Virus record (IMG/VR): IMGVR_UViG_649989924_000003
Strand: one strand, 5' to 3'
Length of the DNA: 64,000 nt
Source: a virus
Taxonomy: Duplodnaviria > Heunggongvirae > Uroviricota > Caudoviricetes
In this document: positions 5,329-45,360 of the stretch, one piece after another
Layout: every line of letters begins with the position of its first letter
Position numbering within the stretch: the first letter of the stretch is position 1
The notes under the pieces: model-generated
Database searches by the model: none
The model's input: only the letters and a program-made list of their open reading frames with translations
What the model was told of the DNA's origin: nothing
Program-made: the position numbers and the translations under genes

Positions 5329-6054
5329 ATGAGAAAAGTGCAAATTTATATAAATCCAAATCATAGTAGAATAGAGTGTGAATGTGAAGAAAGGAAGAGA
5401 AACATGTCATTTCATTGTATATTCATGAAAGAAGATATAGCTTATTTAGGGGCAGATAGTAGAAAAAACTTTACAGATGGAAGTTATAGCGATAATCATC
5501 AGAAGATATTTATCAATCGTAATTTAAAGATGGTGTGGACTATGACAGGTATCACCGAATATAGAAATATAAATTATTTTTATATTGTTAATATGATACT
5601 CAATAATCCAAAAGCAAGCATGCTAAAAAAAGTATATACTATTCAGGATTTAATGAATCCAATTACTGAGAAGATGCATCAGGAAACACAAGAAGATTCA
5701 TATTTTGATTTGTTTATAACTACAGTAGAGAACGGTGAATTGGTAACTTATACAATAGAATCTAAGAATGGCCAAGCAGATGAAAAAACAAATAGAAGAC
5801 ATTGGGGTAATTATCTTGAGGCAAGTGGTGTACATACAGATATGAGATACAGAGTAAATGAAAGTGATTTAATTGAGTTATCAGAAATAGATATGACTCA
5901 AAAAGTAAATAATCTGATTTCAGATGTTATAGAAGCCAATAAGAAATGTAAGTCTAATACAGTGGGTGGAGATATATATGTTGCAACAATAGATAATAAA
6001 GGTAATATCTTCACTTATGTTAATGGGAGGAACTCTGATTTTAGAATTATGTGA
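5329..6054 (+). CDS. Proteasome-beta/HslV-like Ntn hydrolase, paralog A (upstream GTG 5338; core ATG 5404, Ser1)
   Basis: M-SFHC...LGADSR...QKI...MTG and C-terminal TVGGDIY, matching the Thr1/Asp17/Lys33/Gly47/SGG pattern. Confidence 0.7.
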   Translation: MRKVQIYINPNHSRIECECEERKRNMSFHCIFMKEDIAYLGADSRKNFTDGSYSDNHQKIFINRNLKMVWTMTGITEYRNINYFYIVNMILNNPKASMLKKVYTIQDLMNPITEKMHQETQEDSYFDLFITTVENGELVTYTIESKNGQADEKTNRRHWGNYLEASGVHTDMRYRVNESDLIELSEIDMTQKVNNLISDVIEANKKCKSNTVGGDIYVATIDNKGNIFTYVNGRNSDFRIM

Positions 6055-6073
6055 TATGATATAGTCATGTCAA

Positions 6074-6694
6074 ATGGCAATATATAAGAAAGAAGGGATA
6101 TTAGTGTTTAAAAGAAAATATATAATTTCTGATTATTTTTATGAAGGAGTAAACTATAAAGCAACTTCCTATGAAGAAATAGAAAGATACTATAAACAGT
6201 GGCAAGAGACTCTAAGTTCTCAAGAAATGAAAGCATTTGAGCATTATAGAAAGAAAATAAATACAAATAATAATATTAATGCTAAATTGAGATTAGGCCA
6301 AATACCTGAAGATAGTTTTATCCTGTCTAGTGCTTTAAGAAGAGCATCCTGCCCAGATAATATTCTTGTTTACAGATGCCTTAGTAGAAAGGAAAATAAG
6401 GATATGTCCAACAAAACAGTAGGACAATTATTTATGAGAAAAGATTACAAAGGAACACATGTCAAAGATATAGTTACAGGAGGTTTTCCTATAATAAATA
6501 GCGCTGGATATATGATAATACTGATGCCAAAAGGAGCAAAAGCGGCATATATCAATAATTTATCAAACAAATTTAAGAATGAGAGGGAAATGCTTATTGA
6601 TAAAGGACAGGTATTTATGCTTATAGAGAAAAATAATGATATATTTAATTTACCAACATATATAGTAAAATTACAGATAAATAAGTCAATATAG
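6074..6694 (+). CDS. VIP2/C3-like ADP-ribosyltransferase
   Basis: NINAKLR, ILVYRCL (catalytic Arg), PKGAKAAYI, NEREMLIDKG (ExE). Confidence 0.8.
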   Translation: MAIYKKEGILVFKRKYIISDYFYEGVNYKATSYEEIERYYKQWQETLSSQEMKAFEHYRKKINTNNNINAKLRLGQIPEDSFILSSALRRASCPDNILVYRCLSRKENKDMSNKTVGQLFMRKDYKGTHVKDIVTGGFPIINSAGYMIILMPKGAKAAYINNLSNKFKNEREMLIDKGQVFMLIEKNNDIFNLPTYIVKLQINKSI

Positions 6695-6862
6695 TTATGA
6701 ATATGAACATTAATAGTTGTAGATGTATTTTTAATATTCTAGGATATTTTTCCTTATACAACGTTGATTGTGGTATAGTAATAATCTTTTTTCATTTCTT
6801 ATGATATAATTTATGTTAAGTAAATAAAAGATAATTTATCAGATGAATTTAAGCAGAATTGC

Positions 6863-7498
6863 TTGGAGATGAAGAAAGGAGTGAATTATAACTGTCATAA
6901 GCTTGGTGGAGTCACTGCATTCGCTCTAACAGGCATATATACTTATCAGAATGGAATATTGGATACCTATTCGTATCATGTAGAAATCATCCCTCTCAAA
7001 TTCTCCTATCAATCCTACATCATCCCACTTTTTCTTCTTTTTATATTCTCTTATTATTCTTCTACACTTCCAGATATAGACCATCCCATATCACGTCTAG
7101 GGAAGAAGTACCCACATATATCCCAATATATGAATACTCAGTTTGGGCATAGGGGAGTTACCCACTATCCCATAACACTGCTAGGTTTAGGATGTATATT
7201 ATATTTGATTGGTCAAATAATGATTCAGCCATATAGAATTCTATGGATGTGGGGAAGTATTGGATTTGTTGTGGGATATGCCTCCCACATCCTCTTAGAT
7301 ACCCTTAATAGTTCTGGTATTGCATGGCTGATGCCTTTTTCAAAGGTTAGAGTGAAAATTCCCACAGGTATCAGGATAAAAAACAAAAAAGGGAAGAAAA
7401 GAGTCTGTTGGAGGTATCTTGAGGGGAATCGTACGCATGATAAGATGATTATTATCGTTATCTGTTGTCTTTTGATTTTCTTACTGACAAAAGGATAG
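6863..7498 (+). CDS. Membrane metal-dependent hydrolase (YdjM/DUF457-like)
   Basis: LPDIDHP, HRGVTH, GYASHILLDTLN motifs; several TM segments. Confidence 0.85.
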   Translation: MEMKKGVNYNCHKLGGVTAFALTGIYTYQNGILDTYSYHVEIIPLKFSYQSYIIPLFLLFIFSYYSSTLPDIDHPISRLGKKYPHISQYMNTQFGHRGVTHYPITLLGLGCILYLIGQIMIQPYRILWMWGSIGFVVGYASHILLDTLNSSGIAWLMPFSKVRVKIPTGIRIKNKKGKKRVCWRYLEGNRTHDKMIIIVICCLLIFLLTKG

Positions 7499-7525
7499 TA
7501 TCAGTTTCTCATGATTATGTTGTAG

Positions 7526-43952: not shown

Positions 43953-44110
43953 AATTATTTCTCCAGCTTTTTGTGGAGCCCGCCTCCTTTTTTGTAAAAT
44001 AAAAAACTACACTAGAAATATAAAATCCTCCTATATATAGTTTTTCTCTTTTGATAGATTTTTCTAATTTTTTGGATAAACACTCATAATTCTTATGAAA
44101 ATAATACTTT

Positions 44111-44193
44111 CCTCCTTTTTTGTAAAACAAAAAATGGAACCCAAAAAAATATGAGTTCCATAATCGTTATAGTTTACTACTATATTATATCAT
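44111..44193 (-). promoter_or_regulatory. Promoter-ACGA-terminator leader, copy 9 (its RBS tail is repeated at about 43982-44005)
   Basis: TGATATAAT-16 nt-ACGAT-GGAACTC/GGGTTCC-T6G-AGGAGG. Confidence 0.75.
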
Positions 44194-44333
44194 AACTAAA
44201 GGATTTCGCGTTTTTACCAACTTATTAGCCAATTCATTTTTGCTAATTGAGTTATGTTGAAAAAAGTTGAATAAAGTCATATAATTATTTATATATACTC
44301 AATTAAAATAAGAGATTAAAGGGCAAATATAAA

Positions 44334-44714
44334 ATGGTATCAGTAACAAAGAGAATAAAAATGATTAAACAACCCTATGGAGGATATATCGGTCCTATAG
44401 TTTTGAAGGGTTTTACTTTTGAAAATGGTTATACTGATTATATTCATTCTGGCGATGGAGATTTCTTAACAGAAACAACTCTTTGGGATTTTAAAGTATC
44501 TATTCATCATCCAAGCAAAGACCATACACTTCAAATTCTGATTTATTATCTTATGGGAATACATTCAGATAACTCAATTTATTTTGAATCTATACAGAAT
44601 CTTGGAATTTATAATCCACGATTACAAAAAATTTACTTAATTAGTATAGCTGAAATACCAGAAACAATTCTTAAAGATGTTTGCGAAAGCGTTATTGGAT
44701 ACAATTTTCATTAA
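44334..44714 (+). CDS. PD-(D/E)xK-like hypothetical protein, possibly internally deleted
   Basis: GDGDFLTETTLWDFKVS. Confidence 0.45.
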   Translation: MVSVTKRIKMIKQPYGGYIGPIVLKGFTFENGYTDYIHSGDGDFLTETTLWDFKVSIHHPSKDHTLQILIYYLMGIHSDNSIYFESIQNLGIYNPRLQKIYLISIAEIPETILKDVCESVIGYNFH

Positions 44715-45360
44715 ATTTTGAATAATCCATCACTGCATACTGAACCTTTCCTCCAACTGCAAGATAGCCTTGAGAGTAAAGGTTTTTTTCTAGTTTTATT
44801 TCAGTTTCCACAGACTGAATCCCTTTCTCCAAGACTATATCAAGTGAATTAAACATATCTGAGCGAGTGAAACTATTTAAGCCATTTATCATATGCTCCT
44901 CTTCGCCAGAAGTGATAATATCCAATTCATTATCATTGTAAAATTCAATAGATGGAATCTTATGGTGAATGATATCTACTCTATACAATGTCTTTTTGTA
45001 GGCAACCATCAGGCGCATATCCTTGCATTCTCTATCACAGGTAATTTTGAGGAATTCAGAGTATTTTTTCACAATATCAGCAATATTTTTATCTGATACA
45101 GCCCTAAAATATTCCAATAATGTCCCATTAATATCCACCAATTCTTTCCCTACATATACCTGATTGATTCCTGTGATTCCAACGCATAAAACATTTGGTA
45201 TTAAACAGTGGATTTTTTTGTAATTGGAGTCTTTTAGGGTTCTATCAGGATATGTACTATATGAATCTGAAGCCATGACAATTCCATTCACATTCTTAAT
45301 AACAACCATATATGACATAAAGTTTCTTCTATCCCCTTTCTTGTTTGTCATTTCTAACAT
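44692..45360 (-). CDS. Ntn hydrolase paralog G (upstream ATG 45360; core ATG 45318, Ser1)
   Basis: M-SYMVVIK...MASDS...KKIH...ITG; AVGGKVQ; closest to paralog F. Confidence 0.75.
   Translation of the reverse strand: MLEMTNKKGDRRNFMSYMVVIKNVNGIVMASDSYSTYPDRTLKDSNYKKIHCLIPNVLCVGITGINQVYVGKELVDINGTLLEYFRAVSDKNIADIVKKYSEFLKITCDRECKDMRLMVAYKKTLYRVDIIHHKIPSIEFYNDNELDIITSGEEEHMINGLNSFTRSDMFNSLDIVLEKGIQSVETEIKLEKNLYSQGYLAVGGKVQYAVMDYSKFNENCIQ

Follow-up and report, generated by a model that had tools for sequence, protein, structure and literature searches.

What seven relatives of the proteasome beta subunit do on a single mobile element, how they obtain a free catalytic N-terminus and whether they arose together are the questions raised by IMG/VR record IMGVR_UViG_649989924_000003, a stretch of 64,000 nucleotides assigned to the Caudoviricetes (the window, that is, the whole stretch of DNA that was analysed). 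A preliminary description, made from the letters alone, had reported seven dispersed open reading frames (ORFs) for a stand-alone proteasome-beta/HslV-like N-terminal nucleophile (Ntn) hydrolase at positions 5329, 21538, 22757, 23452, 24244, 34778 and 44692; all are present in the ORF listing of the window. The proteins, here called N1-N7, have the predicted fold of proteasome subunits, an invariant Ser or Thr right after the start codon and an active site in register with that of the proteasome; they are under purifying selection and diverged anciently into four clades. They can with good confidence be described as single-domain MEROPS T1-type Ntn hydrolases of a large, mostly Bacillota mobile family, most likely accessory enzymes acting on proteins of the host or of rival elements. 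Their coordinates are as follows, the clades being those of the tree discussed below:

N1 (clade A): longest ORF 5329-6054, plus strand; M-S start 5404..6054; 216 amino acids.
N2 (clade B): longest ORF 21538-22320, minus strand; GTG-Ser start 21538..22212; 224 amino acids; Glu replaces Asp17.
N3 (clade C): longest ORF 22757-23455, minus strand; M-S start 22757..23407; 216 amino acids.
N4 (clade C): longest ORF 23452-24225, minus strand; M-T start 23452..24126; 224 amino acids.
N5 (clade C): longest ORF 24244-24960, minus strand; M-T start 24244..24849; 201 amino acids; short C-terminus.
N6 (clade D): longest ORF 34778-35431, minus strand; M-S start 34778..35398; 206 amino acids.
N7 (clade D): longest ORF 44692-45360, minus strand; M-S start 44692..45318; 208 amino acids; 42% identity to N6.

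Each of the seven contains, inside the longest ORF, an ATG (GTG in N2) followed by a Ser or Thr codon and preceded, 8-14 nt ahead, by a purine-rich Shine-Dalgarno-like GAAAGGA or AGGAAGGA; counted from this internal start, the proteins have 201-224 residues. N5-N4-N3-N2 form a co-oriented run of 3.4 kb, and the whole set is spread across 40 kb. The shared motifs on which the preliminary description was based are visible in the alignment of the seven: (M)S/T1 at the N-terminus, the residue being Ser in all paralogs but N4 and N5; G/S-A/S-D-S/T at residue 17 (SES in N2); (K/Q)K(I/V) around residues 33-34; a Gly near 47-49 that never varies; and (T/V/A)(V/I)GG close to the C-terminus. The C-termini differ among the paralogs, and those of N5-N7 lack the last strands.

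The set is real, homologous and complete within the window, as indicated by pairwise and profile-level links and by the number of matches to a hidden Markov model (HMM) of N1-N7: among 290 six-frame ORFs of the window exactly seven match at E <= 10, with no eighth homologue of any type. N3, N4 and N5 match each other by blastp at 1e-20 to 1e-29, N6 and N7 at 1e-55, N1 and N2 at 4e-13, and N1 and N3 at 8e-4, while N6 and N7 are joined to the other five at the profile level only. An exhaustive search with the seven-protein profile recovers N6 (a search query), a partial N7 copy (P0027) and other clade D proteins.

Single-sequence comparisons are not informative on the nature of these proteins. 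PHROGs, NCBIfam and PADLOC give no match for any of the seven, and phmmer of N6 against the PDB returns only chance matches to homing-endonuclease fusions. With the Pfam Proteasome model (PF00227), N6 scores 22.0-22.1 bits and N7 18.8 against a cut-off of 22.4, and N1-N5 have no match, so that the gathering threshold is reached by none of the seven copies, although 14 of 84 family members match at E < 0.01. These low scores reflect the sensitivity of the model; the family profile itself reaches E 1e-7. With the seven-protein profile alone 15 of 17 matches are proteasome beta, and a profile of 84 trimmed family members (A2) has 157 matches in the PDB, all of them proteasome subunits among the matches listed; the best one (E 1.2e-7) covers profile positions 4-200, nearly end to end. 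Position 2 of this profile, the Ser/Thr, is aligned to the first residue of mature beta1 and beta2 from yeast, and in the HMM alignment the family Asp, Lys and Gly are in register with Asp17, Lys33 and Gly47 of mature Plasmodium beta5.

AlphaFold2 models of N6 and N4 were built with the family alignment. The N6 model has a predicted local distance difference test (pLDDT) score of 96.9 and a predicted template modelling (pTM) score of 0.92, the N4 model a pLDDT of 93.8, and both show the alpha-beta-beta-alpha sandwich of the proteasome-subunit type. Structural superposition was performed with VIA-align, including an unbiased search over 48,161 PDB representatives; overall, the models match Anbu and 20S beta with Z 16-18, root-mean-square deviation (rmsd) 2.2-3.1 Å and 166-178 residues. 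Individual results are:

N6 model on Anbu 5nyw: Z 18.1, rmsd 2.6 Å, 178 residues.
N6 model on Leishmania beta 6td5: Z 17.9, rmsd 2.2 Å, 167 residues.
N4 model on 20S beta: Z 16.4, rmsd 3.0 Å, 170 residues, with model residue 2 on Thr1.
Unbiased search, Anbu: Z 17.4.
Unbiased search, 20S beta: Z 15-17.
Unbiased search, HslV (T. maritima 1m4y): Z 14.7.
Unbiased search, connectase (6zw0): Z 14.1.
Unbiased search, BPH: Z 14.0.
Unbiased search, other Ntn hydrolases (ceramidase, NAAA, penicillin acylases, bile-salt hydrolases): Z <= 11.

In the superpositions on Anbu and on mature beta chains, model residue 2 falls on chain residue 1. The assignment to stand-alone Ntn hydrolases of the proteasome-beta/HslV/Anbu type is therefore borne out by the PDB profile search and by two confident models, and the profile alignment and both superposed models place the N-terminal Ser/Thr at the Thr1 position. 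Since an Ntn fold is predicted and the ORFs are homologous, the core of the preliminary description stands. The same data bear on the idea that these proteins are small-molecule amidohydrolases, acting on signals, cell-wall fragments or acylated compounds rather than on proteins: the Ntn fold is common to penicillin acylases, bile-salt hydrolases and ceramidases (Z 8-11), and no unfoldase is present. However, sequence and structure place the family inside the proteasome-like branch (Z 14-18 against <= 11 for the small-molecule enzymes), whose characterised members all act on polypeptides, and this explanation appears quite unlikely.

The catalytic residues are conserved well beyond the window. 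Among the family representatives, 139 have a match that extends to the N-terminus. At position 1, 107 of these have Ser and 32 Thr, and no other residue is observed; at position -1, 135 have Met and the other four Ile, Leu or Val. Of the 139, 36 are annotated without any N-terminal extension. In 84 sequences Lys33 and Gly47 are invariant, and conservation reaches 90% or more for Asp17, for a Gly corresponding to Gly128 and for the late GG; Glu17 is found in N2 and in its nearest relative. The late motif had been equated with Ser169-Gly-Gly of the proteasome, which is correct for the glycines, aligned with Gly170-Gly171, and incorrect for Ser169, whose position is Val/Ile; a conserved Thr lies two residues ahead of the GG. 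The Ser129 position is Glu/Gln in most copies. The lack of conservation at Ser129 and Ser169 would suit proteins without catalytic activity that serve as scaffolds or decoys, such as mimics titrating a host factor; inactive proteins with this fold are known, among them the proteasome alpha subunits and several of the eukaryotic beta subunits. Such a role is nevertheless extremely improbable, given the nucleophile present in all 139 representatives, the conservation of Lys33, Gly47 and Asp17, and a start codon directly before the nucleophile in every member, a pattern that would have no reason to persist in a non-enzyme.

The way in which the nucleophile is exposed may be linked to a leader that precedes every paralog. 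From 5′ to 3′ it comprises a -10 box, a co-varying hairpin of 3-5 bp abutting GGAG(G), an in-frame upstream ATG, GTG or TTG, a second Shine-Dalgarno sequence and the M-S/T start; in most window genes the upstream start lies 6-9 nt past GGAG(G), and in all genes 11-37 open codons separate it from M-S/T. The leaders are located as follows:

5308-5403, plus strand: N1 leader, with a short hairpin abutting GGAG, in-frame upstream start and second Shine-Dalgarno sequence.
22213-22330, minus strand: N2 leader, same architecture as that of N1, as for all those below; GGAG motif 22308-22316.
23408-23480, minus strand: N3 leader; GGAG motif 23464-23472.
24127-24200, minus strand: N4 leader; GGAG motif 24187-24195.
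24850-24965, minus strand: N5 leader; GGAG motif ~24944-24962.
35399-35455, minus strand: N6 leader; GGAG motif 35441-35449.
45319-45385, minus strand: N7 leader; GGAG motif 45369-45377.

This architecture is found in 15 of 15 genes, the seven of the window and eight paralogs of the related loci L001-L004. The exact 9-mer CTGCTGGAG has four copies in the window, each ahead of a paralog, and at one mismatch there are 16 window matches against 4.1 expected. Between the window and L008, a diverged copy of the element that is 76-85% identical to the window, the leaders are ~95% identical and the coding parts 78-84%. The N3 leader motif (CAGTCAACTGCTGGAGATGA...) lies within the last codons of N4 and copies the N4 leader (window 23452-23475 and 24180-24200, minus strand; SSQLLEM in both); in the sequence this looks like a trace of a tandem duplication that included the leader.

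The leader can be understood either as a dual start giving an N-terminally extended pro-form or as a 5′ mRNA element, e.g. a stabiliser; 5′ mRNA stabilisers of the STAB-SD kind occur in Bacillota. Among proteasome homologues, propeptides have been reported only in beta subunits and HslV (PMC8665760), and while proteasome precursors carry Gly-1, the putative propeptide of the present paralogs would end in Met. A function of the conserved Met-1 as a self-cleavage residue was considered and set aside: the Ile, Leu or Val of the four non-Met cases would fit alternative start codons (judged from residues, not from codons), as does the GTG of N2, so that a start codon is favoured, although the in-frame upstream start still speaks for a possible pro-form. 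The near-universal Shine-Dalgarno sequence at the internal start, together with the rarity of non-Met residues at -1, points to direct initiation followed by removal of the Met; methionine aminopeptidase removes Met before Ser and Thr.

As to the origin of the copies, the term "lineage-specific expansion" used in the preliminary description is misleading. In a maximum-likelihood tree of 84 family sequences four clades are obtained, each with 100% support: A (N1), B (N2), C (N3, N4, N5) and D (N6, N7). The seven window proteins occupy seven separate placements, and every one is closer to a protein from another contig than to a window paralog; the nearest foreign relatives include P0014 for N1 (56% identity), P0016 for N2 (54%), P0012 for N4, P0025 for N6 and P0013 for N7. 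As no window copy is the nearest relative of another and orthologues exist elsewhere in all four deep clades, the copies are old paralogs rather than the product of a recent burst. Diversifying selection, which had also been suggested, is not seen at the whole-gene level: the ratio of nonsynonymous to synonymous substitution rates (dN/dS; Nei-Gojobori) is 0.14-0.23 for five orthologue pairs, close to the value of 0.11 for the element integrase, indicating purifying selection. In L008 the N7 orthologue (3290-3985, the counterpart of window 44692-45360) has a ~47-nt deletion just after the MS start that shifts the frame, while its remainder has a dN/dS of 0.16; either a recent loss or an assembly error would explain it.

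The family is not restricted to this element. At a threshold of E <= 1e-3, an exhaustive HMMER search with the seven-sequence profile retrieves representatives of at least 151 clusters (50% identity), and the family is mostly mobile-element or prophage cargo of Bacillota, often in arrays. L002, to which P0016 belongs, has four paralogs within 3 kb and L004 two side by side, arrays of different clades recurring in both; in L001 one paralog lies ~2 kb from an Apyc1-type metallo-beta-lactamase (an anti-defence type) on the same contig, with a YopX gene ~1 kb off. A distant relative is located between tail and holin genes of a Gracilibacillus prophage, and other relatives are chromosomal. The clade D alignment finds no relative in GTDB species genomes or in IMG/VR, and ten longer relatives, inspected for domain fusions, contain no Pfam domain.

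These arrangements can be read in another way, namely that a number of the paralogs assemble together, as a mixed ring or stack, into a multi-subunit proteasome-like particle encoded by a mobile element. Seven diverged copies would be analogous to the eukaryotic ring, with its seven different beta subunits; the co-orientation of N5-N4-N3-N2 within 3.4 kb, the leader motif common to all paralogs, which suggests co-regulation, and the recurrent arrays of different clades would agree with it. On the other hand, the copies are scattered over 40 kb and have individual promoters and leaders, related contigs have one, two or four of them, and L008, a diverged element, has a disrupted N7 orthologue; moreover, the C-termini differ, with the last strands missing in N5-N7, and there is no alpha-type subunit. 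Co-assembly is thus judged improbable.

The DNA itself is part of a mobile element of ~200 kb from Coprobacillus cateniformis, a bacterium of the gut. Hundreds of metagenome assemblies have contigs of 180-206 kb that encode proteins with 90% identity or more to N3, N5 and N6, all carrying the name "hypothetical protein [Coprobacillus cateniformis]"; this supports the earlier view that the paralogs reside on a mobile element. Megablast of 25 kb of the window gives nothing in INPHARED phages or PLSDB plasmids, and tblastn of N4 and N6 against phages gives no match. Besides the paralogs, the window contains the following recognisable genes:

1-1419 and 1505-2515, plus strand: anaerobic ribonucleotide reductase NrdD, split over two ORFs (Pfam).
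4825-5226, plus strand: thioredoxin (thioredoxin-fold protein; Pfam), directly before N1.
6074-6694, plus strand: ADP-ribosyltransferase of the exoenzyme/toxin type (PF03496, 9e-15), directly after N1.
10531-11580, plus strand: T2SSE (type II/IV secretion family) ATPase (Pfam).
22356-22712: HTH_17 (Pfam), between N3 and N2.
24981-27011, minus strand: KAP P-loop NTPase, PADLOC candidate PDC-S49 (3e-53, nearly full length).
27454-28296, minus strand: Fic protein, matching PDC-S72 at 1e-82.
29821-30846: Toprim primase (Pfam).
33255-33776, minus strand: YopX, near N6.
37976-38959, plus strand: tyrosine integrase.
54076-55116, minus strand: metallo-beta-lactamase-fold protein.

The cargo of the element is mixed, with pilus/secretion, phage-type and recombination genes. 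The first NrdD ORF ends in a weak match to an intein splicing domain (PF14890; E 2e-4, 21.6 bits against a cut-off of 35.8), and the KAP NTPase and Fic genes form a small stretch resembling a defence island directly upstream of the N5-N4-N3-N2 array. The thioredoxin and the ADP-ribosyltransferase that flank N1 look like host-modifying cargo.

The absence of an HslU/AAA partner, reported earlier, holds: Pfam scans of 47 window ORFs reveal no AAA+ or Clp/Hsl family, and a Walker-A scan of the window detects three ORFs only, namely the T2SSE ATPase, the KAP NTPase and one ORF of 168 amino acids. The KAP NTPase, directly upstream of N5, was considered as an ATPase partner and rejected, as it matches a PADLOC single-gene candidate over nearly its full length, does not stand beside the paralogs in the loci examined (L001-L008), and N5 has its own promoter-like leader; it is regarded as a candidate defence gene in its own right. 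A search for small partner ORFs found nothing convincing beside N6, the sole paralog checked.

Taken together, these data suggest the following scheme. Translation would begin at the internal ATG or GTG preceded by a Shine-Dalgarno sequence, and methionine aminopeptidase would strip the Met, leaving the free amine of Ser1 or Thr1; another possibility is that the conserved in-frame upstream start gives rise to a longer form, which might process itself. Acting through the proteasome mechanism and without an ATPase partner, the enzymes would hydrolyse peptide or amide bonds or catalyse their transfer, different paralogs probably having different substrates, as accessory enzymes directed at proteins of the host or of rival elements rather than as housekeeping proteases. 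An accessory role is considered most likely because the paralogs are cassettes with their own promoter and leader, and their neighbours are genes for host modification or putative defence (ADP-ribosyltransferase, Fic/PDC-S72, KAP/PDC-S49 and YopX).

Several points weigh against this scheme. The replacement of Ser129 by Glu/Gln and of Ser169 by Val/Ile implies that the fine chemistry may differ from that of the proteasome, and single subunits of the proteasome family are usually inactive outside an assembled ring (PMC8665760). The in-frame upstream start, with a Shine-Dalgarno sequence of its own, leaves room for a main product that may carry a propeptide ending in Met. Furthermore, PADLOC and PHROGs give no match that ties the family to defence or counter-defence, and a neighbourhood is by itself poor evidence of a role. 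The anti-defence, isopeptidase and mixed-ring functions proposed in the preliminary description are accordingly matters of speculation. So is, and it must be rated rather improbable, a broader picture in which the paralogs form a panel of ATP-independent proteasome-fold enzymes, working as a mixed particle or individually as proteases or ligases with sequence specificity, each directed against its own protein of the host or of a rival element (e.g. an immune protein) and all co-induced through a shared leader that offers a pro-form or an active form; if true, this would be the first functional "viral/plasmid proteasome system".

Whatever their precise substrates, the accessory enzymes proposed here belong to a poorly explored part of the proteasome superfamily: relatives beyond the classical 20S and HslV are numerous, and only connectase has a known job. 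The element provides seven intact and, as predicted, separately expressed versions in a culturable and common Bacillota host of the human gut, with orthologues that permit comparison; it is therefore a convenient starting point for learning which substrates mobile proteasome homologues cleave and whether rings or partners are required, and it also bears on the question whether a protease family has been drawn into the struggle of mobile elements with their hosts. Should the enzymes prove to have specific targets, they might become useful as sequence-specific tools, as happened with connectase.

Among known systems, the best structural match is Anbu (5nyw, 5nyg, 5lox/5loy; Z 18.1), which is also a stand-alone bacterial proteasome homologue. 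Like the paralogs, Anbu has neither a Gly-1-type propeptide nor an unfoldase partner; unlike Anbu, to which they are only 10-15% identical, the paralogs have Ser1 in most copies and occur in multiple copies on a mobile element. A typical Anbu operon includes ATP-grasp, alpha-E and transglutaminase-like genes, none of which was found among the 47 window ORFs scanned, ~30 small ORFs lying outside the scan. The long C-terminal H5 helix of Anbu, responsible for coiled-coil contacts (PMC8665760), is absent in N5-N7; the N6 model ends right after the strand that follows the GG, and the terminal helix of the N4 model is short and of low confidence (pLDDT ~66-71).

With 20S beta (MEROPS T1A, PF00227) the paralogs share a full-length profile match (E 1e-7), structural similarity at Z 16-18, the equivalents of Thr1, Asp17, Lys33 and Gly47, and the C-terminal motif of GG plus a hydrophobic strand. 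They differ in that no alpha subunit is present in the window, residue -1 is Met (Val in N2) instead of Gly, Ser129 and Ser169 are replaced, all seven remain under the Pfam gathering score, and 3-9 residues are inserted ahead of the GG. HslV (ClpQ) is similarly a bacterial proteasome-like peptidase with the nucleophile directly after the initiator Met (Z 14.7); however, no HslU/AAA+ gene accompanies the paralogs in the window, the match is weaker than with Anbu or 20S beta, and the paralogs are longer by ~30-50 residues.

Connectase (MJ0548; 6zw0, 8jtu), an archaeal, single-copy and highly sequence-specific proteasome homologue without ring or ATPase, is the precedent for considering the paralogs as monomeric or dimeric sequence-specific proteases or transpeptidases, each recognising one short target motif. 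It demonstrates activity of the fold without ring formation (PMC7980362, PMC8665760), it is matched at Z 14.1, an ATPase partner is missing here too, and many diverged paralogs would suit many specificities. The details of the fold speak for the contrary: connectase lacks the helices H1/H2 and has a two-helix S3/S4 lid as its signature (PMC8665760), while the models show the reverse, with H1/H2 retained (residues 66-74 and 80-101 in N6, 60-70 and 74-92 in N4) and no helical insertion between strands 3 and 4. In structure, the models are also nearer to Anbu and 20S beta (Z 17-18), both of which form rings. A connectase-like mode of action is possible, if unlikely.

Finally, Fuchs, Alva and Lupas (2021) catalogued computationally, with no experimental data, 22 new families of proteasome homologues, including phage-borne PPH and AAH and five Firmicute-only clusters, FC1-FC5 (representatives WP_075525441.1, WP_000217171.1, WP_098409529.1, WP_076223917.1 and WP_106036939.1), which belong to a "group II" linked to Anbu/WPH and of which FC4 has C-terminal domains resembling phage tail proteins (PMC8665760); no relevant work later than 2021 was found in literature searches covering these families and the Coprobacillus element. 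The present family resembles FC1-FC5, being mostly from Bacillota, nearest to Anbu and unnamed in Pfam, NCBIfam and PHROGs, and it is probably part of these Firmicute clusters, the comparison having been made by description, taxonomy and nearness to Anbu only. Multi-paralog arrays on one mobile element and a conserved leader are not described in that catalogue (PMC8665760); the new points are the many intact, anciently diverged copies carried by a single element, the presence of comparable arrays on related elements and the leader that they share.

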